Notes under the pieces: model-generated
The model's input: the letters and a program-made list of their open reading frames with translations, nothing else
Databases searched by the model: none
What the model was told of the DNA's origin: nothing
Part shown: positions 4,367 to 63,208 of the stretch, one piece after another
How positions within the stretch are numbered: the first letter of the stretch is position 1
How the letters are laid out: each line of letters opens with the position of its first letter
NCBI GenBank assembly: GCA_049514515.1
Contig: JBEKUZ010000008.1
Coordinates: forward strand, 9,303-73,302
Origin: Thermodesulfobacteriota bacterium
Lineage (GTDB): Bacteria; Desulfobacterota; BSN033; UBA1163
Reading direction: 5' to 3'
DNA: 64,000 bases
Made by a program: the position numbers and the translations under genes

Positions 4367-4549
4367 CTACTCTTTACTTTTACCCGAATTGTCTTCTAAT
4401 TTCTTTTCGGTGGTTTCGTCACCTTCCAACCCTTTCTTGAAGCTTCGAATCCCCTTTCCAAGACCCGCGCCAAGGTCCGCAATTCTATTACCACCAAAAA
4501 TGACCAAAGCAATCACCAAGATCACCAACAAATCCGGTCCCGCAAGCAT
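4367..4549 (-). CDS. tatA: Twin-arginine translocase subunit TatA/E
   Basis: 60 aa: one TM helix plus an amphipathic helix, [33 protein letters not shown]. Confidence 0.85.
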
Positions 4550-4641
4550 ACATCCTCCTTTCTGAAATCCCCCAAAGTAGCAATTAAAGGAATTTCATAT
4601 CGACCTTTTATAAAAAATTCTGAGATCATGTTCATAGATCA

Positions 4642-7600
4642 CTACTTGCCTTCGGGGATGTCGTCTCCAGCATCGATTCTCCTCGACTCCTCGGCCTTAG
4701 GCAGGCGGTCTGTGGGTCGCGCCCACCAGACGTAAAAAGTAGGTAGCAAAAATATACTAATCAACAGGTCAGCGACCAATCCGCCTACAATGACGATAGC
4801 AAACGGCCGCTGCGAGTCAGACCCGATGGCGTGTGACATGGCTGCCGGCAGCAAACCCAGCGTGGCGACGAGCATGGTCATCATAATCGGCCTGAGCCGA
4901 CGTGTTGCTCCTTCAACCGCGGCATCGGTGATCGAATGGCCTCTCGCACGCAACTGATTGATATACTCAACCATAACGACGCCAATCTGAACCGAAACCC
5001 CGAGCAGGGCCAGGAACCCCACCCCCGAGGAGACGCTTAAATAAGTGCCCGTTACGAGCAATGCCAGAAGACCTCCGAAAGGAGCCACAACCATACAGAG
5101 CAAATTGAGAAACGCCCACTTAGCGGAGCCGAAGGCGCCATACATGATCATGAAGATGAGAAAGACTGTTAGGGGCACGATGATCAGCAGCCGTTCCTCG
5201 GCTCGCTTTTGGCTTTCATACTCACCCAGCCAATTGATGAAATACCCTGGCGGCAACTTCACCTGCTTATTTACCTTCTCTATTGCCTCCTCAACGGTGC
5301 TGCCGAGATCGCGGTCCCGCACGCTGTACTTGACAGCGATATAGCGCCGGTTCGCTTCACGATAGATTTGGTTCGCGCCATCCGGCGTTTCCACCGCGCA
5401 GAGCTGCGCCAGTGACACTCGCTCGCCGGAAAGCGATAATAAGCGGATCTTTTCCAGCGCTTCCTTTGTGTCGCGGTACTGAGGAAGATAGCGCATGACA
5501 AGGTCGTAACGCTCCTCGCCCCTGAGGACCTGGGTGAGGGCATTGCCGCCCACGGCAGTCTGAATGGCATCCTGGACATCCGCCACGTTGATCTGGAAAC
5601 GGGCGGCCTGCCTGCGGTCCACGATGAAATTCAGGTTGGGCTGACCGACGACGCGAAAGATGCCGAGGTCCTGGATTCCCCGAACGCGTTGCATCACGTT
5701 GTAGATCTCTTGGGCCTTGGCCTCGAGAAGTCTCAGATCATCACCGTAGATCTTCGTGGCAAGTTGCCCCTTGATCCCGCTCGTCGCCTCTTCCATGTTG
5801 TCCTGGATCGGCTGAGAGAAGTTCCAGATCGCACCGGGGATCTTCTCGAGCTCCCGGTTCATGGCGGCGATGAGTCTCTCTTTATCCTGGTGAAAGACAG
5901 GGCGCCACTGGTCCTTCGGCTTCAGGTTGACGCAGTACTCTGTGTTGAAGAACCCTGTAAAGTCTTGTCCGTCATCGGGCCGTCCGACTTGGCTGGTCGT
6001 CTGGGTTACCTCGGGAAAGGAGGCGAGTATCACGCGAGCCTGATTCGCTACCCGGATACCCTCACTCGGTCCCGTGCTCGGCGCAAGAGTGCCACGCACC
6101 CAGATTGCACCCTCATCCAAATGGGGTAGAAACTCCGATCCAATGTGATCGCTCATCACCAGATAAAGACTGCCGCACAGAGCGAGCACCGCAACGCCAA
6201 CCATCACCCAGCGATGATGGATCGACCAGGTCAGGGCCCGCCGATAGCGTTTCGTAAGCCATACAACCACCGGATTGTGCCACTCGGGGGTTTCTTTGCG
6301 GAATAAGAAACTTAGCAGAACAGGCGCGATCGTTATTGAAAATACCATTGCTCCCAGGAGAGCAAACGCTACGGTCCAGGCCATCGGTTTGAACAGGCGC
6401 CCCTCCACGCGCTGCAGGGTAAAAACGGGTAAGTAGCCGCTGATGATGATCGTAATGGCGTAGAAGACGGGCCTTTGCACCTCGTGCGCGGCAGCCCGAA
6501 TTCTATCCATCACTGACGAGCTCGGGTCGCGATGGCCTAAGTGGCGAGTGATGTTTTCGACCATGACGACCGCGCCGTCCACGACCATACCGAAATCGAG
6601 CGCACCCAGCGATAGCAGGTTTGCAGGAATCCGCCTCAGATCGAGACAGATGGACGCGAACAATAACGAAAACGGGATCGTCAGCGCAACGATGAGCGCG
6701 CTCCGGGCATTTCCCAGAAAGAGGAGCAGCACGATCGTGACAAGGATGAAGCCTTCCGTAAGGTTTTTCAGAACGGTGTGCGTCGTGTACTGTACAAGAT
6801 CGCCTCGATCGTTGAATGGAACGACCTTAACGCCCGGGGGTAGGATTTTTTCGTTCAGCTCCTGCACCTTCTTCTGCACGCCCTTGATCGTTGCGTCAAA
6901 CTCGGCGCCTTTCCGCATGAGCACGATGCCGGAGACGACATCATCGTTGTCTATGATCTTCCCATCCGAGCGATGAATCGCCCTGCCAAATTGGCCGAGC
7001 CGGATCTTGGGACCCTGTGAGACGACGGCGATGTCTTTGACACGTAACGCCGTGCCGTTCTTTGTCGTGATGACTGTATCCTCAATGTCGCGCACGTTGC
7101 GGACCAACCCGACCACGCGCACGTTGATCTGCTGCATGCCCGCTTCGATGAAGCTTCCGCCCGCGTTCACGTTGTTGTTGGTGAGCTGTTGTTCCACCTG
7201 GCCGATACTGAGTCCGTGGGAGACGAGTTTGTCCGGATCGACGCGGACCTGGTATTCGCGCGTGGGGCCGCCGAAGACCGATACGTCCACCACATTTGGC
7301 ACCGTCTTGAACTGTTTCACCAGGACCCAGTCTTGCAGGGATTTCAATTCCATCGGGTCATATTGCGGATTCGTGCTCCTCAAGGTGTAGAAGTAGATCT
7401 GGCCGACCGGGCTGAAGTCGGGGCCAATCTGGGGCTGAAGATTGGCGGGAAGATTGACCATGGAGAATCGCTCCAGGACCTTTTGCCGGTTCCAGTCGTT
7501 ATCAGAGTCGTCGTCAAACCAGAGGATCACGACGGACAACCCGGCAATCGTTACGGAGCGCAGGTGGGTGAGATGCGGAATACCGTTCATCACGTTTTCA

Positions 7601-7806
7601 AGGGGAATGGTGACTTGCTGCTCTATTTCTTCTGCGGCCCGGCCAGGCCATTGCGTGATGACCCAGGCATAATTATTCGCTACGTCAGGATACGCTTCGA
7701 TCGGAAGACGGTGGAAGGCAACGATGCCACCGGCAAAAAGCAGAAGGGCAAAGGCCAGTACGAAAGGGCGCTTGTTCAGGGCGAAGTCTACTACGGCGCG
7801 GATCAT
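4642..7806 (-). CDS. czcA: CusA/CzcA-family heavy-metal RND efflux pump
   Basis: 1054 aa, 12-TM RND architecture, typical N-terminus MIRAVVDFALNKRPFVLAFALLLF...PIEAYPDV. Confidence 0.9.
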   Translation of the reverse strand: MIRAVVDFALNKRPFVLAFALLLFAGGIVAFHRLPIEAYPDVANNYAWVITQWPGRAAEEIEQQVTIPLENVMNGIPHLTHLRSVTIAGLSVVILWFDDDSDNDWNRQKVLERFSMVNLPANLQPQIGPDFSPVGQIYFYTLRSTNPQYDPMELKSLQDWVLVKQFKTVPNVVDVSVFGGPTREYQVRVDPDKLVSHGLSIGQVEQQLTNNNVNAGGSFIEAGMQQINVRVVGLVRNVRDIEDTVITTKNGTALRVKDIAVVSQGPKIRLGQFGRAIHRSDGKIIDNDDVVSGIVLMRKGAEFDATIKGVQKKVQELNEKILPPGVKVVPFNDRGDLVQYTTHTVLKNLTEGFILVTIVLLLFLGNARSALIVALTIPFSLLFASICLDLRRIPANLLSLGALDFGMVVDGAVVMVENITRHLGHRDPSSSVMDRIRAAAHEVQRPVFYAITIIISGYLPVFTLQRVEGRLFKPMAWTVAFALLGAMVFSITIAPVLLSFLFRKETPEWHNPVVVWLTKRYRRALTWSIHHRWVMVGVAVLALCGSLYLVMSDHIGSEFLPHLDEGAIWVRGTLAPSTGPSEGIRVANQARVILASFPEVTQTTSQVGRPDDGQDFTGFFNTEYCVNLKPKDQWRPVFHQDKERLIAAMNRELEKIPGAIWNFSQPIQDNMEEATSGIKGQLATKIYGDDLRLLEAKAQEIYNVMQRVRGIQDLGIFRVVGQPNLNFIVDRRQAARFQINVADVQDAIQTAVGGNALTQVLRGEERYDLVMRYLPQYRDTKEALEKIRLLSLSGERVSLAQLCAVETPDGANQIYREANRRYIAVKYSVRDRDLGSTVEEAIEKVNKQVKLPPGYFINWLGEYESQKRAEERLLIIVPLTVFLIFMIMYGAFGSAKWAFLNLLCMVVAPFGGLLALLVTGTYLSVSSGVGFLALLGVSVQIGVVMVEYINQLRARGHSITDAAVEGATRRLRPIMMTMLVATLGLLPAAMSHAIGSDSQRPFAIVIVGGLVADLLISIFLLPTFYVWWARPTDRLPKAEESRRIDAGDDIPEGK

Positions 7807-12733: not shown

Positions 12734-12894
12734 TCTACCGTATCCGATTTCGTGCCCGTTAAGGTTTGCTATAGTACTTTTCCGTCCCATGCCGCATCCA
12801 TAGGGTCGAAAGTGACCGTACTTTCTTACCTTAGGCATTAGTTCCGGAATCTTTAGGACGAAGCTTCTTAGGGGACAATAACTGGCCGGCGGAA

Positions 12895-14037
12895 TCAGAT
12901 CTTGCCGGAAAGGGATTCGGCATATCCGGTTAATTCGACATAGCCCACGCCCTTGATGGGTTCCCGCTGGTATTTCCCGTCCACCTTAACGCTTCCCTCC
13001 CAGTAGGTCACCCGAGTGGATTCTTTGGTAATCAATTCTTGATCTTTAACGGTCGGGGAAAGGGTCAACTTAATTTGGCGAGCCGGGACTGTTATTCTCC
13101 ATTTGGAAGGATAGATTGCGCCGCTCTTTGAGCTTTTCCAGTGATCCAGGGCTTCAATCTGAAATTCCTTTTTAGGTAAGTGCTGGTATGTTCCATCAGG
13201 AAAGATGATGGTTCCACTTGAATAAGGATCTATTTCCCCGTCCTTGTGTCGGATCTGATAAAACATCAGCTCCGTCCTGTTATCTAATTGGATGCTAAAC
13301 CAATCCCATCCAACCTGGTATTCCCGGAGTTGAGACGAGCCAAACTCATGGTCCATCCAGCTGATTCCTTGGACAGAAATCTCCTTGTTTTGCAGAAAGA
13401 TTTTTCCTTCCGTTTTTAAGCGAGGGATGGAGTAATAATGCGAGGCATACCCCTCTCCTTCAGCTTTCTGGCTGATCCCATTTTGCCCATGGATGGCAGG
13501 GTTTTTTCCAGGGATAAGCATCAGCTCAATCCCAAAAGTCTTGTCTCCGGCTTTGAGAACATGATTCTGCATCCCGGGACCTTTGCCTTCAATCGACCAG
13601 CCTTCGATCCAGATCCGGAAGGTCTTTTCGCCTTTTTTGTAAGGGTAAGCTCCGGCCTCTCCCAAGCTTCCGCGGCTGATCTTCTCAAGATATTCAAACT
13701 TCGCCCTCGATTCATCCGTGACGGCAAGATGGGCAAAATAAAGGTCTTGAATGGACCAATTCGATTTTTGATGTTTTGTTCCCCTGTTTAAACCCGTTCT
13801 GAAAAAGGTGAGCTGGTATCCAAACGATTTCTTCTCTTGACTGTAAAGATGGCCGGAATAGTACCACCATTCGGTTCTAAATTCAGGATGAGAAAAATGA
13901 TCCTGGGGAAAAGAAAAAACTCTTCCCGGAAGCACCCGTTTGAACTCTTGTCCAAGAAGCATAGAACTAAAGACGACAATAGCCAGAAAAATTAAAAAAA
14001 AGGTGGTCCTTGCGAGCCGAAAGCGAACCAATCTCAT
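12895..14037 (-). CDS. AttH/CrtC-like (hydroxyneurosporene synthase family) lipocalin-domain protein
   Basis: 380 aa, N-terminal TM or signal segment, motifs EWWYYSGHL and YQLTFFR characteristic of the family by recall. Confidence 0.65.
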   Translation of the reverse strand: MRLVRFRLARTTFFLIFLAIVVFSSMLLGQEFKRVLPGRVFSFPQDHFSHPEFRTEWWYYSGHLYSQEKKSFGYQLTFFRTGLNRGTKHQKSNWSIQDLYFAHLAVTDESRAKFEYLEKISRGSLGEAGAYPYKKGEKTFRIWIEGWSIEGKGPGMQNHVLKAGDKTFGIELMLIPGKNPAIHGQNGISQKAEGEGYASHYYSIPRLKTEGKIFLQNKEISVQGISWMDHEFGSSQLREYQVGWDWFSIQLDNRTELMFYQIRHKDGEIDPYSSGTIIFPDGTYQHLPKKEFQIEALDHWKSSKSGAIYPSKWRITVPARQIKLTLSPTVKDQELITKESTRVTYWEGSVKVDGKYQREPIKGVGYVELTGYAESLSGKI

Positions 14038-14046
14038 CCTCCAATC

Positions 14047-14107
14047 CCCACCCTTCCCTTCCCTCTCTTCCCCTCTCCCCTCGTGGGAGAGGGCGCGGGT
14101 GAGGGGG
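14047..14107. repeat. Palindromic intergenic repeat, family PU (CCCCTCACCC..CCCTCTCCCCnnnnGGGGAGAGGG..GGGTGAGGGG), copy 1
   Basis: Inverted arms around tcgt. Same family as the copies at 22002, 27592, 28830, 31258, 36766, 53428, 62425 and 63095. Confidence 0.85.
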
Positions 14108-14259
14108 AAAATTTTCTGTTATTGTAATGGAAAAACCGAAATAGAATCAAGAATTCTATAGACGATAAATGAGAAAGGTGGTAAATAAGTACAATTAGAG
14201 GAGCCAATTGGAAAGAAATCAGACCTTCGTCTAATAAGCATTACATTCTGCGAGAGCAT

Positions 14260-14919
14260 ATGGATAGCATGCTCAAGAAATGGCTGCGATGGCTCAAAGT
14301 CGTTCATGACGACATTCAGCAGTTGCTAATAAAACAGAATATCTTCTGGGAAGTCCAGGATATTATTAGAACTAACGCTAAGCTTCACAAACCCAGTTCC
14401 TTTTACAGCTATCTGGGGGATACTTACGTTGCCTACATCTCAATTGGAATTCGCCGCCAAATCAAGATTGACAATCAGAGTATTTCTTTTGCCCGGTTAC
14501 TCACTGAGCTTGCCAACACACCAGCCGTTTTGTCCCGGAAGTACTATGTCAGCCTTTATAAAGGGTCCAGGGTTGAGCAATTTGCAGACAGAGACTTCGA
14601 CAGATACTGCGGAAATGACAAAGCCTATATTTGTCCAGACATGGTACTCGCCGATCGCGATGAGCTAAACCGCGCGGCATTGGTGGTTGAGGACTTCGCC
14701 GATAAGCGGATAGCTCATCGCGACAAACGCAAACCGAAGGCGCTGCCACGATTTGAACAAGTCGACTCGTGTCTGAATACGCTGGATAAATTATACTGCA
14801 AATACCACGGGATTTTTCACGCATCGGCCATGAGTACTCTAGTGCCTGTTTACCAGTATGATTGGAAGGAGATATTTACCGTCCCTTGGCTGAGATATGA
14901 AGAAGAATCAGAAGAGTGA
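14260..14919 (+). CDS. Hypothetical protein, AbiU2-like HEPN-motif candidate
   Basis: 219 aa, helical. It has DKRIAHRDKR (R-x-x-A-H-[RN]-[DE]) after an IGIRRQIKID-NQSISFARLL block. This matches the layout of ORF 17601..18164. Confidence 0.45.
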   Translation: MDSMLKKWLRWLKVVHDDIQQLLIKQNIFWEVQDIIRTNAKLHKPSSFYSYLGDTYVAYISIGIRRQIKIDNQSISFARLLTELANTPAVLSRKYYVSLYKGSRVEQFADRDFDRYCGNDKAYICPDMVLADRDELNRAALVVEDFADKRIAHRDKRKPKALPRFEQVDSCLNTLDKLYCKYHGIFHASAMSTLVPVYQYDWKEIFTVPWLRYEEESEE

Positions 14920-15061
14920 AGGACCTAACAACATGCACCCAGTCGCCCAAACTGCGGGCTCTGGGATAACCAGGCCGTTGAGTCATGAGGCTGTGGAAAA
15001 TCATAATGGTAATGGAGCTAAGAACTAACCTATGAAGTGTCATCTTGTTTCTAGCCACTGA

Positions 15062-15607
15062 ATGTGGAAGAATACTCGCATGCAAAGAGATTTAAGAACC
15101 AAGCCCTTCTACGAGACCAAACTTGGACGGACGTATTGCGTGGATTCGTTGGAGTTCATGCGCGCTGAGATGAACGACCCTTCCGTGGATCTAATTATGA
15201 CGAGCCCCCCATTCGGCTTGGTTCGTAAGAAGACCTATGGCAATGTCGATGCCGACAGCTACTTGGCCTGGTTTCATCCCTTCGGGCTTGAATTCCACCG
15301 CATCCTGAAGCCCCACGGTTCTCTCGTTATAGACATCGGTGGTGCCTGGAACCGCGGACAACCTACCCGAAGTCTCTATCACTTTGAACTGCTCATTATG
15401 CTATGCAAAGACCTCGGCTTCTACCTAGCCCAGGAGGTTTTCTGGTGGAATCCCTCAAAACTGCCAACTCCTGCTGAGTGGGTTACTGTTCGCAGAGTAC
15501 GCGTCAAGGATGCTGTCAACTGCATTCAGTCTGAGTATCACAAGGTAGACAATGGCGCCCTCGGCAAACTGCAGTCGCTAATATCGACTCGTCTCCCTTT
15601 TAATTAA
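15062..15607 (+). pseudogene. N4/N6 DNA methyltransferase (PF01555-type, beta class), 3'-truncated
   Basis: Catalytic motif IV is present (DLIMTSPPFGL). The sequence follows the family up to VKDAVNCI, then diverges and stops at 181 aa. The C-terminal AdoMet motif I (FxGxG) half is absent, and the next gene starts 18 nt later. Confidence 0.65.
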
Positions 15608-15624
15608 AGGAGTTAAAAACTCTC

Positions 15625-16509
15625 ATGCCCCAATGGAAATTGCTTGCACGTGACTGGAAATCAAATCTTGCTTCCCTTTTTGGCTCCGTAACCTCCCAAC
15701 TTGTCATATCTTCGCCATATGTTACGAGGGATGGAACGTCATATCTACTCTCTTATTTGCCTCGCGCCGGAATCAACTCTATTAACCTCCGCCTTGTTAC
15801 AGATCTGTCAGCTGTAAACATCTATCAAGGGGCAACCGACCCGGATGCACTGCGGATTCTTGCTGATACCGTCCCGAATTTCAAATTATTGCATCTACCC
15901 AAATTACACGCCAAAGTCTACATTTCTGACTACCATAACGCGATAGTCACTTCTGCCAATCTTACTGAAGGAGGATTAAACCGAAATTATGAATATGGCC
16001 TATTCACCGATTGCACACCTTTAATTCACCAGATACTCGAAGATATTACGGAATACTCCGACCTTGGTGCTCTAGTCACCTCAGAAAATCTCCTTGAGTA
16101 CTGTAGAATCGCCGAGAAATTAAAGACAACTTTCAAAAAGCAACAACTTTCAATACGGTCTGCTTTGCAAAAAGAATTCGAACATTGTGTTCTTTCTGCC
16201 GAGGATAATCTCATCCGACTTCGCTTGGCAGGGGGTGCAATGCATACCGTATTTGCCAAGACAATTCTGTATCTCCTTCGGCGTTACGGACCGATGCCAA
16301 CCACCGATATTCATCCGAAGATCCAACGGATCCACCCAGACCTGTGCGATGACAACGTCGACCGTGTCATAGATGGTAAGCGCTTCGGAAAAAAATGGAA
16401 ACACGCTGTCCGGACAGCGCAACAACAACTCAAGAAACAAGGACTCGTGAGGTTTGCTGATGGCCGTTGGAGAATTTCTTCGATTAACGACGGCCTAAAA
16501 GGAGTTTAA
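15625..16509 (+). CDS. PLD-superfamily (single HKD) nuclease with C-terminal Mrr_N-like winged-helix domain
   Basis: HKD motif LHAKVYISD followed by VTSANLT. C-terminal ...KKWKHAVRTAQQQLKKQGLVRFADGRWRIS resembles the Mrr N-terminal wH domain. Confidence 0.7.
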   Translation: MPQWKLLARDWKSNLASLFGSVTSQLVISSPYVTRDGTSYLLSYLPRAGINSINLRLVTDLSAVNIYQGATDPDALRILADTVPNFKLLHLPKLHAKVYISDYHNAIVTSANLTEGGLNRNYEYGLFTDCTPLIHQILEDITEYSDLGALVTSENLLEYCRIAEKLKTTFKKQQLSIRSALQKEFEHCVLSAEDNLIRLRLAGGAMHTVFAKTILYLLRRYGPMPTTDIHPKIQRIHPDLCDDNVDRVIDGKRFGKKWKHAVRTAQQQLKKQGLVRFADGRWRISSINDGLKGV

Positions 16510-16513
16510 AACA

Positions 16514-16756
16514 ATGGCAAAACGAAAAACATGCAAAGCATGCAATGGCAAAGGCCTATTTGCACCTGCCGATCCTTCTTGCAAAATCCATGCACTTAGG
16601 CCACCATGGGTAGTAGTGGAGAGATGCGACTCTTGTGAATTCTTTTCCGACGATCTCCTTGCAGCGCAATCGCTTTATGGTCTGGCTGGCTGGTTTACTT
16701 GCACCGGGGGCGCATTTCATGCCCTTGCAGATACTCGGACATATGTGCGAAAGTAA
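16514..16756 (+). CDS. Small Cys-rich (zinc-ribbon-like) hypothetical protein
   Basis: 80 aa with CKACNGKG...C...CDSC. It starts 4 nt after the PLD gene stop. Confidence 0.4.
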   Translation: MAKRKTCKACNGKGLFAPADPSCKIHALRPPWVVVERCDSCEFFSDDLLAAQSLYGLAGWFTCTGGAFHALADTRTYVRK

Positions 16757-16818
16757 AGTGTGCGACATCTGCCATCGTCAGCTCCGCATTATCAGGAAGT
16801 CGCCGGCAAAAAGTACAA

Positions 16819-17433
16819 ATGGAGTCGGTATCAGCGACAAAGACCAACCAGGAAATAGCAGTTGCAATTCGGCCGGACCAGATGTTGAACTACATGGCCA
16901 ATGCTGAAGAACTTCATCGTCTGGGTAAGAATGCTGCCATGTACAGCCTACTGTCCAAGGCATCGGCATCTGAGAAGATTTTAGCGGAAGAGATCACCAA
17001 ACTTACCCCAAAACGTCAGAAAATCCTCTCCACCCTGACCCGATGGGCTCGATCAGCCTCTTTTCATCAGCAAGTGCTCCGTGCCTATGATAACAGATGC
17101 TCTGTTACACGGATGCAGCTGCGCCTTGTTGATGCAGCACATATCCTACTGGTTCAGGCTGAAGAGACCACTGACGACGTTCGTAACGGCATAGCCTTGT
17201 CACCGACCTACCATCGAGCCTTTGACGCAGGATTGATTTACCTTGATGAAAACTACGTAATGAGAATCAATACTGAACAGCAACTTCAACTCGTGACCCT
17301 AAGACTTGATGGAGGGATAGAAGATTTTAAGCACTATTTGAGCAAGCGGATCTATTTGCCCCCGGACAAACGGCAATGGCCTGACACTACTATGATTCGA
17401 AAGGCTAATAGATACCGACGCATTTCTCAATAG
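16819..17433 (+). CDS. HNH_2-family (PF13391-like) HNH endonuclease
   Basis: FHQQVLRAYDNRCSVT...VDAAHI...VRNGIALSPTYHRAFDAGLI matches the HNH_2 pattern. Start set at the ATG at 16819; the track ORF start at 16699 overlaps the previous gene. Confidence 0.7.
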   Translation: MESVSATKTNQEIAVAIRPDQMLNYMANAEELHRLGKNAAMYSLLSKASASEKILAEEITKLTPKRQKILSTLTRWARSASFHQQVLRAYDNRCSVTRMQLRLVDAAHILLVQAEETTDDVRNGIALSPTYHRAFDAGLIYLDENYVMRINTEQQLQLVTLRLDGGIEDFKHYLSKRIYLPPDKRQWPDTTMIRKANRYRRISQ

Positions 17434-17600
17434 AGATGCGATGCAGGAGCCTATAAAGCGTACGAACCAAACACTTACAGAAAATGCGATTTCTCAGGAT
17501 GCTCCGGCACAACGATCTCATATTGGGAGCGGTCAAGTGCCCCCCGAAAACCACCGTTTAATCCTGGTTAGCTTTTTTTACACGCTCGTTAGGCATTCCT

Positions 17601-18164
17601 ATGAGCGAAGCGCGTGCGATCATCGAAGTTTTAATTGAGGAGGGAAATGCAGCGCGCGCCCATTTCCAAGTGTGGTGGGCGCTTCGCAACGTGGCCATTC
17701 CGCGTTTCCTTCCGACTATGAATAACCTTGAGTATGTGGATTTCTTCCACGCTTCCAACGCTGGCCATTACAAGTTGTTCCTGCTGGCATTGTCGAAGAT
17801 ATTTGATCGAGACACTCGTGTTTCAGGTATTCGCGAACTTCGACGAGCATTGAAACAAGAAGGTCGCAATGACCTCGCCATGTACATTGGCAAAGAGCTC
17901 AACCCATTCCGCAAACACATCAGTGCGATTATGGGCATTCGTAGCCAATCTCTGGTGCACAATGAACGAGCCTTGCCACGTACAAAGGTTTACCAAATTA
18001 ATGGGGTTACCCCGAACCAGATTCGTAGCCTGATCGACAAGACCGCCAAAGCGATAAATTACGTTGCTCGCGAGCTCGGAATTACCAACACTATATTCGA
18101 GAGTGACCGTGCTGAACGAGCCACCATAAGAATGCTGAAAAAGCTTCAACGTGGAAGCATTTAA
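17601..18164 (+). CDS. Hypothetical protein, AbiU2-like HEPN-motif candidate (second copy)
   Basis: 187 aa. LALSKIFDRDTRVSGIRELRRAL block, then IRSQSLVHNE (R-x5-H). Same arrangement as ORF 14260..14919. Confidence 0.45.
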   Translation: MSEARAIIEVLIEEGNAARAHFQVWWALRNVAIPRFLPTMNNLEYVDFFHASNAGHYKLFLLALSKIFDRDTRVSGIRELRRALKQEGRNDLAMYIGKELNPFRKHISAIMGIRSQSLVHNERALPRTKVYQINGVTPNQIRSLIDKTAKAINYVARELGITNTIFESDRAERATIRMLKKLQRGSI

Positions 18165-18426
18165 CTTGCAGTTGGCGTGGAGTGACAAACAGCGGCCCTG
18201 TTGGGTTCCCGCGCACCACGTTTGGAAGTCCTTGCCCATCTACAATGTTGAGGCTGCAGAAAAAGCTCAAGCAGATTTGTGAGCGAGACGTAGAAAAAAA
18301 TGACCTGACGGGAGCGTTACGCCGAGGCGAGTGGGTTTTGCTAGGAGAAAAACCGACGAGTCGTTTGATCGGATCGCCGATAAACCCGGCTCCCGGTGAA
18401 CTCCACTGTCCGGACAAGAGAGGGAG

Positions 18427-18801
18427 ATGATGATCGAGAATCGATTTGACCATGTTGGGCTGAACGTCATTGATCTTGAGGCAAGCATCACCTTTCTCAA
18501 GGATATGTTCGGATTCGAGATCATCCAGAGATGGGATTCGCCGAGGCAGGCCTTTGTCGGAAAAGATAGTGTGGTTCTTGGCGTGATGGAAGTCAAGGAC
18601 TACGATTTCACAAAGCAAACGATGGCGCATATTGCCTTTCCGTGCAGGAAGGAAGACTTCGGTTTCGTTGTCGAGCGGGTGAAGCAACTGAAGGCTCCAA
18701 TTGTCTCAGGACCGAAAGCCCAGAGGGATGGTGAGACTATCTTGTTTCGTGACCCGTCAGGAAATATTTTCGAGGTGTGCTATCCCCCTCTGAGAAAATA
18801 A
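18427..18801 (+). CDS. VOC/glyoxalase-family protein
   Basis: 124 aa. RFDHVGLNVIDLEASITFLKDMFGFE plus HIAF...DPSGNIFEV pattern. Confidence 0.8.
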   Translation: MMIENRFDHVGLNVIDLEASITFLKDMFGFEIIQRWDSPRQAFVGKDSVVLGVMEVKDYDFTKQTMAHIAFPCRKEDFGFVVERVKQLKAPIVSGPKAQRDGETILFRDPSGNIFEVCYPPLRK

Positions 18802-19268: not shown

Positions 19269-19838
19269 GAGAGCAGGCCGTCGCAGAACAGAAGAAATCT
19301 TTTTCAGCTATGAAAAGTCCCGGTATAAGTATATTTTACAAAACTGTAAATGTTTTGCACAAAAACCGTCAGATTCAATTCCTTCAATATTAGTTCAAGG
19401 CCGGCTTCATACAATTCACCAATAAAATTCAAAAGATGGAACATCTTAGAGGCATTCCGAAATTGGCTACGGGTACATACTACACATAGAGAATTTTTAA
19501 ATTTTAACCCGGCCCTAAATTAATACAAACGCCATAAATAATTTGAAGAGAATCTTGAAACAAGAGCTCAGAGGCACGTTCAAGGAATCGATCTCCCTTT
19601 CTCTTTACGTTTCCTCTCCCCCCGATTACTGCATTAGATTTCCATACATAAGGTCTGAGAATTTTTTCCAACTTTTTGCCTCCTCCCCTCTCCGGGAGAC
19701 TGTGTCGTAATGGCGATGCGGGACTTCGTGCAGGCAGGCCGCTTTGGCGACGGCGCGGGGGAGGAAGAATATTGGGAACGGAATATTGGAAATTGATACG
19801 GCAACATATTAAATTAATCCCATAGGCAGGAAGAAGAT

Positions 19839-22001: not shown

Positions 22002-22040
22002 CCCCCTCACCCTGTCCCTCTCCCCGCAGGGGAGAGGGGA
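22002..22040. repeat. PU palindromic repeat, copy 2 (right arm truncated)
   Basis: ccccctcaccctgtccctctcccc gca ggggagagggga. Confidence 0.8.
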
Positions 22041-22245: not shown

Positions 22246-23646
22246 TCACTTTAGTTCACTCAAGGGTCTTATTCTTGGTTTCTTCATTCTTCCCACCAGC
22301 TCCCATAGGGGGCCGCGAATTCGAAATCTCCGTATTTGCTCCATTAGATTTTTCGTGATGTTGATCTCCAGTCCGGGGACGATCCACCGCTGCCTTGCAA
22401 GGGCTTTTTCCTGAACGATCTCGCTCAGCCTCCCTCCCAATTTTGGCGAAATGTAGAAATGAGGGTAGATGAGGTTAGCGTCCTGAGAGATCACCCCCTG
22501 AGAACGGGAAATTCGCTCCATTTCGGTTCCCGGATAGATTCGGATGCCCAACATCGCAATGACCGCAGTGGGATCGACTTGATCCATCAAATGGAAAGAC
22601 TCCTCGATCGTCTCTTCATCTTCCCCTGGCCCTCCGAACAGGAGATAGTGGCACTGATTCACCATCAATTTGGAACAGAGGTTTGAGGCTTGGATGATGT
22701 CCTCTCGAGTGAAAGACTTTCTGTAACTCTCAAGCATCCGCGGAGATCCTGAATCCGTCCCAAACTCGATTCCATCACACCCAGCCTCTTTCATACTTTG
22801 CAAAAGTGTCTCATTCAGAAAGCTCGGGTTGACAAAAGCACTCCATTTGACATCGACCTTTCTTCCAACTATCTCACGACATAAAGCTTCTGCATAAAAG
22901 GGTGGATAGTTAAAGATATCGTCAACAAAATAGAGGTAGTCCACGCCCTCTCCCACGAGGTGTTGAATTTCCCCTACCACATCCTCCGTCTTCCTCAGCC
23001 TGACCCTTTTCCCTTCTAACAAAGGGTAAGTGCAGTAGATACAGGAGAAGGGGCAGCCTCGCTTCGTCTGAATATTTCCCATCCCTCCCTCTTCCAAATA
23101 ACGATGGGTTTCGAAAAGACTCCGATCAGGGCTTTGGATGGGAGAGACTCGAGCTCCTTCTGTCAAAGGAGGGAAAGGCTTCTCTTTAATAAGAAGATGG
23201 GGGGATGGAGAAATGGGAACACCCTTCTCGAGATGCTTCACCAATTCCACGAACACTTTTTCCCCCTCTCCTACAACCCCAACATCGACGTCGAAATGCT
23301 GAAGAAGCTCTTTGGGTGCCAAAGAATATCCTGAGCCTCCGATGACTAAATGTGAGGAGGTGAATTGACGACATATTCCAATGACCTCCTCTACCTCTTT
23401 GAGATAAGAGATGGAGGTTGGGTAAGTGAGATTATCGAGATTTCTAAGGGAGATGCCGATCATGTCGGGTTGAAAGCGCTGAAGGGTGTTCTTGAGATCA
23501 ACCGGTACCTCTTGAGAAAAGCAGAGGTCGATGACTTCAATCGGATGGCCCTCTTCTCTTAATGCCTCGGCGATGTAAGCCAATCCCAGAGGGAAGACAG
23601 GAAAAGGCATCTTCTCACGATTGACGGAGATGAGGAGAATTTTCAT
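22246..23646 (-). CDS. B12-binding-domain radical SAM protein (class B), paralog 4
   Basis: N-terminal Rossmann-like B12 domain (MKILLISVN...GLAYIA). CX3CX2C in TKRGCPFSCIYCTY. Confidence 0.85.
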   Translation of the reverse strand: MKILLISVNREKMPFPVFPLGLAYIAEALREEGHPIEVIDLCFSQEVPVDLKNTLQRFQPDMIGISLRNLDNLTYPTSISYLKEVEEVIGICRQFTSSHLVIGGSGYSLAPKELLQHFDVDVGVVGEGEKVFVELVKHLEKGVPISPSPHLLIKEKPFPPLTEGARVSPIQSPDRSLFETHRYLEEGGMGNIQTKRGCPFSCIYCTYPLLEGKRVRLRKTEDVVGEIQHLVGEGVDYLYFVDDIFNYPPFYAEALCREIVGRKVDVKWSAFVNPSFLNETLLQSMKEAGCDGIEFGTDSGSPRMLESYRKSFTREDIIQASNLCSKLMVNQCHYLLFGGPGEDEETIEESFHLMDQVDPTAVIAMLGIRIYPGTEMERISRSQGVISQDANLIYPHFYISPKLGGRLSEIVQEKALARQRWIVPGLEINITKNLMEQIRRFRIRGPLWELVGRMKKPRIRPLSELK

Positions 23647-24991
23647 AAGGAAGTTCTTTATCTTTGATCCTTCGAATCACCTCCATCTGGGCGCCCCGTA
23701 GGACAAAGTTTGACATCAGGAAGTAAAAAAAGTGATGCTTGGGGCCCCAGAGCAGGCGCTTCAATATGGATCGAGGGGCACAGATATATTTCTGTGCCCA
23801 GAGGTATCCGTCTTGGAGTTCCTGGACAGTCATTTTTCTCGGCTCGAAGACCACATGGCTCATGTCATAATGGGACCAATTGCGGTCGAAGATCCTCCCC
23901 TCCTCCTCCAATCGCTTCTCAAGAGGCGTCCCCGGAAAGGGAGTGAGAATGGAGAAAGTGGGGAGTTCAATATTATTTTTCTGGACGAATTCAACCGTTC
24001 TTCTAAAAATGGTGGGATCGTCTCCATCGAATCCGAAGATGAAAGAACCGTGTATCCCGATTTGGTGGTGTTGGATCGTATTGACCCAATTTGATAATTC
24101 TCCAGCATTGACAAATCGTTTCGAGACGCTGTCCAGATTCTCCTGGAGAAGGGATTCGAAGCCGATGAAGAGGGAGACACAGCCGCTCTCCTGAGCCTTT
24201 TTGAGAAGCTCCTCATTCATGGCAATCTTGATGGTGGTAAACGCCATCCATTTGACCCTGTGGCGTTTAAAGATCTCAAAGAGGCCACGGGCATAGTTTT
24301 CATTAGCGGTCACGTTGTCATCGGCTAAAAAGAGGTATTCCCCTTTTTTCTCGATGATGAGGGACAGTTCCCGATCTATTTCTTCAAGCGGGCGGAGCCG
24401 ATAACGCTTCCCATTGATGATCGGAATAGAGCAGAATTCACACCGGTTCGGACAACCTCGCGTGGTCTCGATGACCTTGAAGAAGGGTCGATACCCTTCC
24501 GCCAGAAGGTCCCTCCTCGGAAGAGGCATTCCTTTTAGATCCGACCACTCCCGATTCTTATAAAACGGCTTGAGTTCCCCTGCCTCGAAGTCTCGCAGGA
24601 CTTTTTCGAGTACCCCTTCCGCCTCTCCGATGAAGACCGAGTCAGCATGCTCTTTTGCCTCCTCGGGCAAAAGGCTGGGGTGGACTCCTCCCAAAATCAC
24701 CTTGACTCCCCTCTGACGAAACCCATCCGCAATTGCATAGGCTCTATTTATCACACAGGTCAGACCGGTGATCCCTACTAAATCGACTTCCGAATTGAAA
24801 TCGACTTCTTCGACCACCTCGTTGATGATCTTGACCTCATAGGTTTTGGGAAAGAGAGAGGCGAGAAGGGTAAGGCCTAATATGGGGAAAGGGTACAACG
24901 TGTCATTGGAAAATTTAATTCCTTTCTCCCTGGGAAAGATGAGAAGAACCTTCTTCAAATGCGGATTGCGGAATGCGGATTGCGGAGTCAT
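23615..24991 (-). CDS. B12-binding-domain radical SAM protein, paralog 3
   Basis: TTRGCPNRCEFCSI. The first about 11 codons (TPQSAFRNPH) are repeat-encoded. A TTG at 24958 (LKKVLLIFP) is a plausible true start. Confidence 0.85.
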   Translation of the reverse strand: MTPQSAFRNPHLKKVLLIFPREKGIKFSNDTLYPFPILGLTLLASLFPKTYEVKIINEVVEEVDFNSEVDLVGITGLTCVINRAYAIADGFRQRGVKVILGGVHPSLLPEEAKEHADSVFIGEAEGVLEKVLRDFEAGELKPFYKNREWSDLKGMPLPRRDLLAEGYRPFFKVIETTRGCPNRCEFCSIPIINGKRYRLRPLEEIDRELSLIIEKKGEYLFLADDNVTANENYARGLFEIFKRHRVKWMAFTTIKIAMNEELLKKAQESGCVSLFIGFESLLQENLDSVSKRFVNAGELSNWVNTIQHHQIGIHGSFIFGFDGDDPTIFRRTVEFVQKNNIELPTFSILTPFPGTPLEKRLEEEGRIFDRNWSHYDMSHVVFEPRKMTVQELQDGYLWAQKYICAPRSILKRLLWGPKHHFFYFLMSNFVLRGAQMEVIRRIKDKELPYENSPHLRQS

Positions 24992-25089
24992 TTTTCTTCT
25001 GTTCTATATATTCCTGCTGCCCACTGCCTTCTGCTTGCTGCCTCCTATTTCCTGGTTTCTAATCCGAACTCTGGACTCATCACTCCGAG

Positions 25090-26511
25090 CTAGGATTCAA
25101 AGTTCGGCTGTTTCCACGGCCTTTTCGTCGCATTCTCCCAAACGTATCGGAGGATGAGCCGATAGGCCATTCGTTTGAAAGGATTCGGGTTGAAGAAGGC
25201 TCCCAGAAGGATCCTCGGTTGGGTGTAATATTTTTTCAGGTAGACTTGTTGAAGGTGATGGAGCTCCTCAGGAGACAAAAATTTTGTATCCATCACGGGA
25301 TGCATGAAATCATAATTACCCAGATCCCTCTCTCGAATCCTTCCCAACCGCTCCGCCTCTTCAAAATATTTTGTCCCTGGAAGGGGGGTAGTCAGGGTAA
25401 GTACCAGGAAGTCGCTCTGAGACTTGACGAATTGGAAGACCTCCTTGATCGACTCTCGGGAGTCATTCCAGTCTCCGAACATGATGTTGGCCATGACCAT
25501 GATCTCATTTTTTCTGAGAATATCGATGGCCTTCTGGGCCATCTCTCTGGATTGATGTTTCTCATATCGGTCGAGCACATCGGGCTGGATGCTTTCGATT
25601 CCCAGCATCACCTCATACAGTCCGAGCCGTTTCATCTCGGGGATGAGATCCTCATCTCGAATAATGTCCTTGGTCCGGGATTGAAACCAAAAATGGATGC
25701 GCAGGCCCGACTTCCCCAACTCGTCAAGGAACTCTTCCACCCGCCTCCGACTCCAGTTGAAGGTATTCTCGTTGAAGACGAAAAGCGTCTTGCCGTATTG
25801 ACGGTGCAGATGCGAAATCTCCTCTACGATTTTCTTCCCGCTCCGTCCCCTCCAGACCGCTTCCCAGAACCTGGACTCCGAGCAATAAGCGCATCGATCT
25901 CCGCAGCCGCGGCTCGTAGAAATCCCGAAGGCCCTTCTCCCCATCCCGTGCCAGTAGTAAGCGTCTTTCTCCATATCGATGAGGTGGTAGGCCGGGAGAG
26001 GAAGAGAGTCCAAATTTGGAATGGGAGGGTGTCTTTCGTTCAGAACCACCCTCCCATTCTCGCGATAGGCGATACTCTTCATCGCTCTTCCCTTCCCACC
26101 TCCGGACAGATCCTTGAGAAGCTGGGAAAAGGCGATTTCCCCTTCACCTAAGACGACGCAGTCCAGTTCCTTTAACTCCTGAAGGATTGTTTCGGCCATC
26201 AGCGTGAAATGGCTTCCTCCTGCTACGATGGTGGCGTGGGGGGAGAGTTTTCGACAGAGATGAACGGTCTGAATGGCCTCTGGCGAGAGACAGGTAGCGG
26301 AACAAGTGACGCCGATGACATCGGCTTTGGATGTGGAAACGGCAGTCTCAATATCTCTCCAGGGAGCCGGAAGGGTCGTGGCGTCAACGATTTGAACTTG
26401 ATTCCCTTCTCTTTCGAGGTAGGCACCTAATTGGAGAAGACCAAAAGAAGGGGTCCACATCCGAAGGCCCGGAAAGAGTTTATGCGGCGGATCGATCAGA
26501 AGAACTTTCAT
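25090..26511 (-). CDS. B12-binding-domain radical SAM protein, paralog 2
   Basis: TSRGCGDRCAYCSE. Start set at the internal ATG at 26511 (MKVLLIDPP), because the track start at 26532 (MGALQEN) lies in the REP unit. Confidence 0.85.
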   Translation of the reverse strand: MKVLLIDPPHKLFPGLRMWTPSFGLLQLGAYLEREGNQVQIVDATTLPAPWRDIETAVSTSKADVIGVTCSATCLSPEAIQTVHLCRKLSPHATIVAGGSHFTLMAETILQELKELDCVVLGEGEIAFSQLLKDLSGGGKGRAMKSIAYRENGRVVLNERHPPIPNLDSLPLPAYHLIDMEKDAYYWHGMGRRAFGISTSRGCGDRCAYCSESRFWEAVWRGRSGKKIVEEISHLHRQYGKTLFVFNENTFNWSRRRVEEFLDELGKSGLRIHFWFQSRTKDIIRDEDLIPEMKRLGLYEVMLGIESIQPDVLDRYEKHQSREMAQKAIDILRKNEIMVMANIMFGDWNDSRESIKEVFQFVKSQSDFLVLTLTTPLPGTKYFEEAERLGRIRERDLGNYDFMHPVMDTKFLSPEELHHLQQVYLKKYYTQPRILLGAFFNPNPFKRMAYRLILRYVWENATKRPWKQPNFES

Positions 26512-26519
26512 ATTTTCTT

Positions 26520-26577
26520 GTAGCGCCCCCATTTACTGGGGGCGATTGTTCTCGTCGGCAATGAGTGCTGACGCTAC
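26520..26577. repeat. REP doublet abutting the RAYT stop codon
   Basis: gtagcgcccccatttactgggggcg - 9 nt - gtcggcaatgagtgctgacgctac. Confidence 0.85.
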
Positions 26578-31187: not shown

Positions 31188-31360
31188 TTCCAAATTTCAA
31201 ATTACAAATCCCAAATAAACTCCAGTCTCCATTATCCAATGACCGGAGCCGATTTTGCCCCCTCACCCTTCCCCTCTCCCCGCTGGGGAGAGGGAGGGGG
31301 TGAGGGGAATTTCAAGTATCTTCGGTTGATATTCATTTGGAGTTTAGTATTTGTAATTTG
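31188..31360. repeat. Nested composite palindrome (AT-rich outer arms around PU copy 5 at 31258-31307)
   Basis: The left arm caaattacaaatcccaaataaactcc is the inverted match of the right arm ggagtttagtatttgtaatttg, with PU at the centre. Confidence 0.75.
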
Positions 31361-63094: not shown

Positions 63095-63208
63095 CCCCCT
63101 CACCCTCGCCCTCTCCCGCCAGGGGAGAGGGGGATATCCGCATTCCGCAATCCGCCGTGCACCACGTCGGGTGCACGGCAGCCCTGAACCGCACATGGTT
63201 CAGGGCGC
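63095..63208. repeat. Repeat cluster: PU copy 9 (truncated), cgcaatccgc unit, two-hairpin unit
   Basis: ccccctcaccctcgccctctcccgccaggggagaggggg; atccgcattccgcaatccgcc; gcaccacgtcgggtgc...gccctgaaccgcacatggttcagggc. Confidence 0.75.

Follow-up and report, generated by a model that had tools for sequence, protein, structure and literature searches.

Do six neighbouring genes that all resemble parts of anti-phage systems form one system, or have they come to lie side by side as separate units? The question is raised by an island at positions 14260 to 18164 of a 64,000-nucleotide (nt) stretch of contig JBEKUZ010000008.1 from a Thermodesulfobacteriota bacterium; we refer to this whole stretch as the window. 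A preliminary description of the island, made from the letters alone, had offered two answers: a composite of decayed restriction-modification (R-M) and abortive-infection modules, or one new multi-nuclease system. The former proved essentially right. On balance, we incline to the view that three anti-phage-type units, each inherited separately, lie side by side here, and that the six genes are not one system.

An open reading frame (ORF) check of the window placed all six genes on the plus strand with intergenic gaps of 142, 17, 4, 62 and 167 nt, exactly as first described, and the HEPN, methylase, PLD and HNH assignments held in profile scans. The genes are called g1 to g6 below, comparison loci carry L-numbers, PLD-wH denotes the PLD nuclease with its winged helix, and g4 is also called the zinc gene.

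14260-14919, plus strand: g1, 219 amino acids (aa), solitary AbiU2-family (HEPN-like) protein with a non-canonical motif
15062-15607, plus strand: g2, 181 aa, N-terminal half of a beta-class N4/N6 amino-methyltransferase
15625-16509, plus strand: g3, 294 aa, PLD (HKD) nuclease with a C-terminal Mrr_N-like winged helix
16514-16756, plus strand: g4, 80 aa, cysteine-rich zinc protein
16819-17433, plus strand: g5, HNH_2 nuclease without the N-terminal MTaX1 domain; ATG start, with an upstream TTG at 16699
17601-18164, plus strand: g6, 187 aa, canonical solitary AbiU2 HEPN protein

Mosaic structure of the locus

Two contigs of a related genome, L178 and L179, align to the window at about 85% nucleotide identity. 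Positions 2321-3732 of L178 match window positions 12860-14237 (84.5%), a block with the AttH-like gene, and positions 4778-5582 match 17510-18307 (86.2%), a block with g6. Between these shared blocks L178/L179 carry a single Mrr gene (Mrr_N and Mrr_cat domains) in 1045 nt, whereas the window has 3272 nt with g1 to g5. Two stretches of the window are defined by such comparisons.

14238-17509, no strand assigned: variable hot-spot segment downstream of the AttH-like gene, holding g1 to g5
17505-17555, plus strand: junction stretch common to L013, which has the module only, and L178, which has g6 only

The gene g6 belongs to the older backbone of the locus and is a resident of the hot spot. The other genes have limits and relatives of their own. 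Homology of the g1 cassette with L177 (88.7%) and L174 is confined to 14242-14965, and homology of the inner module with L013, L094 and L095 spans 15466-17551. With L012 it is restricted to 15623-16740, running from the ribosome-binding site of the PLD gene to the stop codon of the zinc gene; in L012 the two genes sit beside an acetolactate-synthase gene. Since an Mrr gene takes the place of g1 to g5 in L178/L179 while g6 is kept, and since each unit has its own boundaries and relatives, the site is a hot spot with cassette turnover. We propose that three independent units would have accumulated in this defence hot spot, downstream of the AttH-like gene: g1, a single-gene cassette for a divergent AbiU2-family protein; g2 to g5, a cut-down R-M-type operon; and g6, the canonical solitary AbiU2 HEPN gene of the locus backbone.

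The alternative is that all six genes constitute one new integrated system in which the HEPN proteins serve as flanking effectors or sensors. It draws on the common strand and short gaps, and on the known association of HEPN genes with R-M operons (PMC3710099). We searched 80 loci from species-representative genomes and 80 from metagenomes, all encoding a g3 homologue, with all six window proteins. In these 160 other PLD loci, homologues of g1 and g6 were absent beside the PLD gene; what recurred across PLD loci was the methyltransferase fragment, g4 and the HNH gene, always in the order methyltransferase, PLD, zinc, HNH. Moreover, g1 and g6 are both solitary elsewhere, L178/L179 retain g6 without the other five, and the nearest relative is a different one for each unit. 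A six-gene system is already contradicted by these observations and we regard it as extremely unlikely. The HEPN genes can likewise no longer be taken for functional partners flanking the nucleases, each being found alone in unrelated contexts. As for the expectation that gene order would be conserved in relatives, it failed for the six genes and was borne out for the inner g2 to g5, a recurrent ordered module.

No tRNA gene was found within the window, no integrase within about 10 kb in the JGI/Pfam gene calls on identical contigs (L001-L003 are the same contig as the window, assembled from several JGI samples), and no direct or inverted repeats flanking the island. The lack of a tRNA or integrase at the borders had been noted before. 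An integron cassette or integrative island, lacking all three of these features, was rejected.

Some further observations concern the joints. L012 and L013 come from metagenome-assembled genomes of Pirellulales and Nitrospirota, respectively, and their PLD and zinc genes share 82-86% nucleotide identity with the window (within 15466-17551) despite the different phyla; this similarity indicates either recent horizontal transfer or a binning error. About 45 nt (window 17505-17555; L013 about 1740-1796; L178 about 4775-4825) occur both in a relative with the module and without g6 and in one with g6 and without the module, and may be a recombination joint or the trace of an older adjacency of module and g6. 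A 25-nt junction motif occurs once in the window; of the comparison loci, only L178 and L179 match a degenerate form of it. The g6 homologue of L178 is flanked on both sides by a 62-nt sequence (4698-4759 and about 5521-5582), of which the window retains the downstream copy only (18247-18306).

The two AbiU2-family genes

The product of g6 matched HEPN_AbiU2 (PF18734) with an E-value of 3.8e-10 (40.0 bits against a gathering cut-off of 26.8 bits), and its R114-x5-H120 conforms to the Rx4-6H motif, both residues being invariant in the family. The match of g1 to the same model covers its full length at E 1.2e-3, and its 18.8 bits fall below the cut-off; 25 of 30 g1 relatives match PF18734, the best at E 1.1e-17. 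N39, R65, H153, Y182, P196 and W202 are invariant in the g1 family, whose motif reads [DN][KR]xxAH in place of Rx4-6H, with a basic residue at -4 to the invariant H153. An AlphaFold2 (AF2) model of g1 is all-alpha (pLDDT 94); this confident model had no fold match in the PDB, so that a HEPN fold was not found by structure search. Profile comparison of g1 with g6 gave a marginal match (probability 1.6%).

Homologues are numerous for g1 (2065 representative clusters) and fewer for g6 (225 matches). Elsewhere they are single genes in varied contexts, with housekeeping neighbours in L174, L175 and L092. In L175 the AbiU2-family gene adjoins a Sel1-repeat gene, another homologue lies inside a Type I R-M/NACHT island, and the g6 homologue of L093 adjoins Shedu. 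AbiU2 genes in R-M operons or next to Sel1 genes were described in 2013 (PMC3710099), and these published contexts agree with those found here. Compared with the AbiU2 HEPN proteins of that study, which include Lactococcus AbiU, g6 is a clear member with Rx5H, and the g1 family is a sister family whose members mostly match the same Pfam model. The differences are that g1 lacks the canonical arginine and that no AbiU1-like partner gene was identified. What AbiU2 itself does has yet to be characterised; both proteins of the island would act separately, as abortive-infection-type toxins.

Architecture of the inner module

That the methylase gene is incomplete had been noticed before, and the profiles agree: g2 matches N6_N4_Mtase over positions 1-100 of 221 only, and the PADLOC model MTase_II over positions 6-147 of 330. 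It aligns to residues 11-163 of the intact 293-aa methyltransferase of L026 and then continues into an unrelated tail of about 25 aa. Of the two motifs expected in a Type II R-M methyltransferase, motif IV (TSPPF) is kept and motif I, which binds S-adenosylmethionine (AdoMet), is missing together with the C-terminal half; no C-terminal methyltransferase fragment was found anywhere in the window. Because its AdoMet-binding half has been lost, g2 is predicted to be incapable of methylation.

Nor is g5 the complete cognate nuclease of a Type II R-M system, which in intact relatives is an MTaX1-HNH protein. It starts at about residue 138 of the HNH protein of L026 and has lost MTaX1, a domain that accompanies methylases and for which a role in telling modified DNA apart has been proposed (PMC10853773). 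The invariant HNH residues are all retained, and the one substitution noted, P111L, affects a position that is nearly invariant; for g5 the ratio of nonsynonymous to synonymous substitution rates (dN/dS) is 0.10-0.25. Assignment of g5 as a phosphorothioate-dependent HNH endonuclease was rejected: it reaches 53.6 bits against the 180-bit cut-off of NF045808 and matches only positions 148-275 (the HNH core), leaving the sulfur-binding and SRA domains unmatched.

The only fully intact form that we found is L026, with a 293-aa methyltransferase, a 287-aa PLD protein and a 336-aa MTaX1+HNH_2 protein encoded by genes whose starts and stops overlap. In L136 the zinc gene coexists with a nearly full MTaX1-HNH gene (MTaX1+HNH_2). 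For 55 species-level loci the flanks were long enough to judge: 29 have the PLD gene by itself and 17 have it together with the zinc gene; the four-gene form of the window was seen in 7, and a single locus has both methyltransferase and HNH complete. Forty-three of the 45 methyltransferase copies directly upstream of a PLD gene lack the AdoMet-binding region. The HNH gene is also damaged in close relatives of the window, by a frameshift in L095, a 324-nt deletion in L013/L094 and near-total loss in L012, L096 and L152. The ordered inner module, the MTaX1-HNH protein of its intact ancestor and the C-terminal winged helix of the PLD protein all lay beyond the view of the preliminary description.

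The gap between the zinc gene and the HNH fragment is occupied in some loci. In L104 an ORF that reads in translation as a RAYT/IS200-like Y1 transposase (1126-1764) is inserted there, and L043 (about 4450-5050) and L164 (about 7130-7720) have a conserved antisense ORF in the same gap. By its likeness to the L104 insert we read this ORF as a putative transposase remnant; the idea that the gap in these two loci holds the missing C-terminal half of the methyltransferase was rejected. Two further ideas about the junction between methyltransferase fragment and PLD gene were discarded. In-frame fusion or readthrough would place more than a third of the junctions in frame, and the 10 of 22 found are not clearly above that level; the nearness of the fragment stop to the PLD start, which could suggest translational coupling, is largely a trivial consequence of the short gap.

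The PLD-wH nuclease and its zinc partner

The PLD gene g3 is complete and its catalytic residues are intact. Its Pfam matches are PLDc_2 and, weakly, RE_NgoFVII. The family (about 286 aa) returned 1804 matches with 50-60% identity across phyla, which include Planctomycetota, Chloroflexota, Bacteroidota and Omnitrophota. In an alignment of 24 homologues, H95, K97, D102, S110 and N112 of the HxK(x)4D...(S/T)xN motif were invariant. There is one HKD motif per chain, from which a dimer of the Nuc/BfiI type is predicted. In the AF2 model (pLDDT 90.3), a Nuc-like single-HKD domain (1-150) is followed by a helical hairpin (153-201) and a winged helix (206-285); the last has three helices, short strands before the final helix and then a beta-hairpin, which is the winged-helix order. 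Foldseek against the PDB matched 7e0m, 1byr (Nuc), 6ehi (NucT), 4ggj (Zucchini) and 7clg (the PLD domain of SauUSI) with E-values from 1e-5 to 1e-4. The winged helix is weakly Mrr_N-like, both against Pfam Mrr_N (E 0.009) and against the N-domain of the L178 Mrr protein (hhalign E 0.0011, 78 columns); a profile of the C-terminal domain matched no PDB chain at E<=10, DpnI included.

The small ORF next to it, which had been described as a Zn-ribbon ORF, is a real, conserved gene. It lies directly downstream of the PLD gene in 76 loci, and its product has the pattern CxxCxGxG ... CDxC ... C ... H, with C7, C10, G12, G14, C23, C38, C41, C63 and H69 invariant in the family. No family match was found for it in Pfam or the PDB. 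Both genes are strongly constrained, with dN/dS of 0.07-0.17 for PLD and 0.08-0.26 for the zinc gene, and they are the part that is retained in every close relative: in the closest ones (84-89% PLD identity) both are always intact. A short repeat precedes each of the two.

15606-15620 and 16498-16512, plus strand: 15-nt Shine-Dalgarno-containing repeat AAAGGAGTT[A/T]AAAAC (repeat family D2), before the PLD start and then before the g4 start

Where the PLD gene stands alone its neighbours are mostly housekeeping genes, with no recurrent partner. The PLD-wH family was not found in IMG/VR viral contigs or phage records, and plasmid records gave partial matches to the PLD domain only; a phage or plasmid origin was rejected on these grounds. 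Immediately upstream of the PLD module, two unrelated lineages have a gene for a LexA/S24-type repressor (L004/L021, 5347-5955, from Pfam in L004; L028, 3221-3889, by translation reading). Such a neighbour could mean damage-inducible control or simply a mobile-element context.

Proposed mechanism

We propose that the intact operon would consist of a beta-class amino-methyltransferase, a PLD-wH nuclease, in some cases the small zinc protein, and an MTaX1-HNH nuclease. The copy in the window has lost the AdoMet-binding half of the first and the MTaX1 reader of the last, and has kept PLD-wH and the zinc gene complete and strongly constrained. PLD-wH would dimerise in the manner of Nuc and BfiI to form one HKD active site and cut DNA without a metal, its Mrr_N-like winged helix would select the substrate, and the zinc protein would act as its partner or regulator.

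PLD-wH is most likely a Type IV-like restriction nuclease, that is, one dependent on modification or at least independent of a methyltransferase. This prediction is made because the gene persists with no working methyltransferase, as shown by the near-universal loss of the AdoMet region among the upstream copies, because most loci carry no methyltransferase at all and because the relative L178 carries an Mrr gene at the same site. The same three facts make a methylation-sensitive Type II role unlikely. It would nevertheless be the role of PLD-wH if the module were a dead classical Type II R-M system, with the PLD protein as its BfiI-like restriction enzyme and all four genes on their way out. 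The fusion of a PLD domain to a C-terminal DNA-binding domain does resemble BfiI, the weak RE_NgoFVII match points the same way, and the methyltransferase is indeed truncated. However, purifying selection on PLD and the zinc gene is strong, and in most genomes an intact PLD gene persists with no methyltransferase nearby, which is impossible for a methylation-sensitive enzyme. We therefore consider a dead Type II system very unlikely.

Truncation, selection and alternative explanations

What the methyltransferase and HNH fragments have lost is the part next to the PLD-zinc core. The methyltransferase fragments end between residues 42 and 235, with two clusters of end points, one directly behind DIGGAW (residues 108-117), seen in at least six PLD clades, and one behind WPKA (about residue 166).

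Several findings weigh against our view that unit 2 is a cut-down R-M operon standing beside two separate AbiU2-family genes. Foremost, and unexpectedly, the truncated fragments are not neutral: dN/dS is 0.04-0.12 for the methyltransferase and 0.07-0.3 for HNH, and it is low also in pairs that share a junction and have diverged together with PLD. In L043/L164 the fragment has a dS of 1.29 and a dN/dS of 0.05, and PLD has 1.34 and 0.08; in L035/L147 all four genes have a dS of 1.1-1.7 and a dN/dS of 0.04-0.22 (0.04, 0.10, 0.22 and 0.13). Simple decay explains such constraint less well than a working four-protein system does. Several phyla, moreover, contain the four-gene form. Intact methyltransferase and intact PLD-wH are found together in L026 and in a few loci with a full-length downstream methyltransferase (L009, L077 and L081), an awkward pairing if PLD-wH attacks the methylation product of that enzyme. 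The winged-helix assignment comes from weak scores with no PDB sequence relative, and in g1 the arginine of the canonical HEPN motif is missing, the aligned column being unconserved in arginine. Because truncated fragments are under purifying selection, the label 'remnant' may be too simple for the methyltransferase and HNH genes, whose constraint also lay beyond the view of the preliminary description.

These findings lead to a competing explanation in which the inner four genes are one working multi-nuclease system, and the half-methyltransferase and the HNH protein without MTaX1 are exapted subunits and not remnants. The former could serve as a DNA-binding or regulatory subunit and the latter as a second nuclease, together with PLD-wH and the zinc protein. 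Besides the low dN/dS of all four genes in co-diverged pairs with shared truncation junctions (L035/L147, for example), it is consistent with the mostly uninterrupted ORFs of the retained methyltransferase fragments, with the clustering of truncation points after DIGGAW, with the same gene order in 7 of 55 species and with the complete set of invariant HNH residues in g5. A spread of end points from 42 to 235, however, corresponds to no single domain boundary, and the copies in L038, L034, L006 and L095 contain internal stops or frameshifts. HNH has been lost independently in the window's closest relatives while PLD and the zinc gene were retained, and PLD is alone in 29 of 55 species. The g2 tail, the only piece measurable for the window itself, is neutral against L013 (dN/dS 0.86), a comparison of 46 codons with low power. 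Finally, the divergence of fragment and PLD can be discordant, as in L032/L047, where the fragments are 93% and the PLD proteins 50% identical, and in L121/L129, where dS is 0.06 for the fragment and 0.53 for PLD; recombination could thus keep fragments looking young. The constraint on the fragments may reflect their reuse as proteins, or recombination with intact genes that keeps them young. We therefore keep a working four-gene system as a serious competitor, possible but rather unlikely.

Another reading of the same junctions treats PLD-wH and the zinc protein as a toxin-antitoxin or addiction pair that invades R-M operons, replaces the methyltransferase-HNH junction, which inactivates the two genes in a single event, and then spreads by way of homologous arms. 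Truncation of both flanking genes towards the core is what such an invasion would leave, and the homology limits of L012 coincide with the PLD ribosome-binding site and the zinc gene stop codon. Arm and core divergence disagree, and in E. coli PLD-wH proteins proved toxic and resisted expression (PMC11037411). L154, which has a 5'-truncated methyltransferase right after its PLD and zinc genes, is also cited in its favour. Against invasion, neither a recombinase nor terminal repeats were present, L026 has its methyltransferase, PLD and HNH genes all intact, and the zinc gene is missing beside about half of the PLD genes; shared junctions and deep co-divergence also oppose frequent fresh invasion. 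We find this explanation improbable.

The L154 arrangement itself (1-1540) is the mirror image of the usual one: its methyltransferase runs from about residue 130 to the end and keeps the AdoMet motif, and the contig is too short upstream.

We would only tentatively suggest that the arrangement of methyltransferase N-terminal half, PLD-wH, zinc protein and HNH core is itself a selected architecture, being either a new four-protein nuclease system with an exapted half-methyltransferase and an exapted HNH that lacks its reader, or the footprint of a PLD-wH/zinc cassette taking over resident R-M operons. Such a cassette would replace the junction of methyltransferase and nuclease, disarm the two genes at once and persist together with the conserved arms, through which it might also spread.

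Surroundings of the island

Five copies of a G-rich repeat of 23 nt, GGGAGAGGGCGCGGGTGAGGGGG, occur in the window at up to 3 mismatches, where none are expected by chance; the repeat is probably the REP/PU-type element of this genome.

14085-14107, 22002-22024, 31258-31280, 31286-31308 and 63095-63117: copies of GGGAGAGGGCGCGGGTGAGGGGG, with a degenerate copy near 19680-19760

None of the five lies within the island, as had been observed for the palindromic repeats of the genome; at a density of about 1 copy per 11-13 kb, this absence from 3.9 kb is uninformative. The stretch at 19269-19838, described earlier as AT-rich, has a GC content of 0.42-0.44 against about 0.50 elsewhere and no Rfam match. 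An Rfam scan of 13.8-20 kb gave as its sole match a chance match on the G-rich repeat, and scans for promoters and terminators gave results no better than those for shuffled sequence.

On the minus strand, a 198-aa ORF at 18091-18687 overlaps the end of g6 and a glyoxalase gene; it is not called on the identical JGI contigs and is probably spurious. Further along, three tandem genes for B12-binding radical SAM proteins (22246-26532, minus strand) lie downstream of genes for a MATE transporter and a short-chain dehydrogenase. The host phylum is hinted at by a sodium-translocating pyrophosphatase that matched, with at least 90% identity, a Thermodesulfobacteriota metagenome-assembled genome.

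Relation to known systems and significance

In line with the first impression that the combination corresponds to no named system, no system named in PADLOC covers it, and neither g3 nor g4 has a model of its own in PADLOC v2.0.0. The best PADLOC and NCBIfam models for the PLD domain of g3 are those of DrmC of DISARM, at 48 bits against a cut-off of 133 bits. DISARM, in which DrmC accompanies DrmA, DrmB and a methyltransferase, was rejected: no helicase-type or other DISARM-type partner was present within about 10 kb in the gene calls and their Pfam matches.

The closest published counterparts of g3 are described in a 2024 article (Front Microbiol, PMC11037411). The PLD-wH fusions Aba4572I and CbaI are proposed there to be N6-methyladenine-dependent Type IV enzymes; both were toxic in E. 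coli and never purified, and their mechanism is unproven. Aba4572I adjoins an amino-methyltransferase, predicted to methylate CGATCG, and two hypothetical genes, and methyltransferases inactivated by frameshifts next to DpnI-like enzymes are noted as well. Like g3, these proteins combine an N-terminal PLD nuclease with a C-terminal winged helix, the published neighbourhood of Aba4572I agrees with the gene order of the module, and the source phyla (Anaerolineae, Chloroflexi) also hold g3 homologues (L023, L027, L028 and L082). They differ in that the winged helix of g3 looks Mrr_N-like and has no DpnI sequence match, as judged by comparison with PDB chains, and in that a zinc partner and a systematic truncation of methyltransferase and HNH are not mentioned in the part of the article available to us. 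By description, which is the basis of this comparison, g3 is a probable member of the same kind.

With BfiI and Nuc, g3 shares the single HKD motif per chain and the Nuc-like fold, and with BfiI also the order of a catalytic domain followed by a separate DNA-binding domain. BfiI, in contrast, has a B3-like domain and depends on two cognate methyltransferases; g3 carries a winged helix instead, and a working methyltransferase is usually missing from its neighbourhood. Mrr, a Type IV enzyme made of an Mrr_N winged helix and a PD-(D/E)xK nuclease, resembles g3 in its DNA-binding domain and occupies the same hot spot in L178/L179, but g3 has its two domains in the opposite order and a nuclease of unrelated fold (PLD versus Mrr_cat). 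R-M systems with MTaX1-HNH, described by the Aravind group (PMC10853773), pair an amino-methyltransferase with MTaX1-HNH as the intact L026 and L136 do; the window differs in having neither MTaX1 nor the AdoMet-binding half, and in having PLD-wH and the zinc gene in between.

Every domain of the island is already known, AbiU2 genes have been described beside R-M genes, and there are earlier proposals of PLD-wH enzymes. To the extent of our checks, the new elements are the ordered operon of methyltransferase, PLD-wH, zinc protein and MTaX1-HNH together with the cut-down forms derived from it, a zinc partner that is conserved, the extent to which methyltransferases are truncated, the constraint under which the fragments evolve, and the exchange of Mrr for PLD at one hot spot.

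PLD-wH and the zinc gene are a candidate pair of defence genes outside the models of PADLOC v2.0.0. PLD-wH nucleases are widespread, and the only experimental study of them failed in both expression and purification. The zinc partner offers a practical lead, as a candidate for co-expression when PLD-wH enzymes are to be purified. The 43 of 45 adjacent methyltransferases that are disabled provide many natural cases in which to study how a nuclease and its neighbouring methyltransferase settle their conflict. Since the truncated fragments are under purifying selection, one may ask whether half-enzymes find a second use; a functional four-gene architecture would add to the interest of the finding. 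The locus documents exchange at one site, with Mrr in one genome and PLD-wH plus extras in another.

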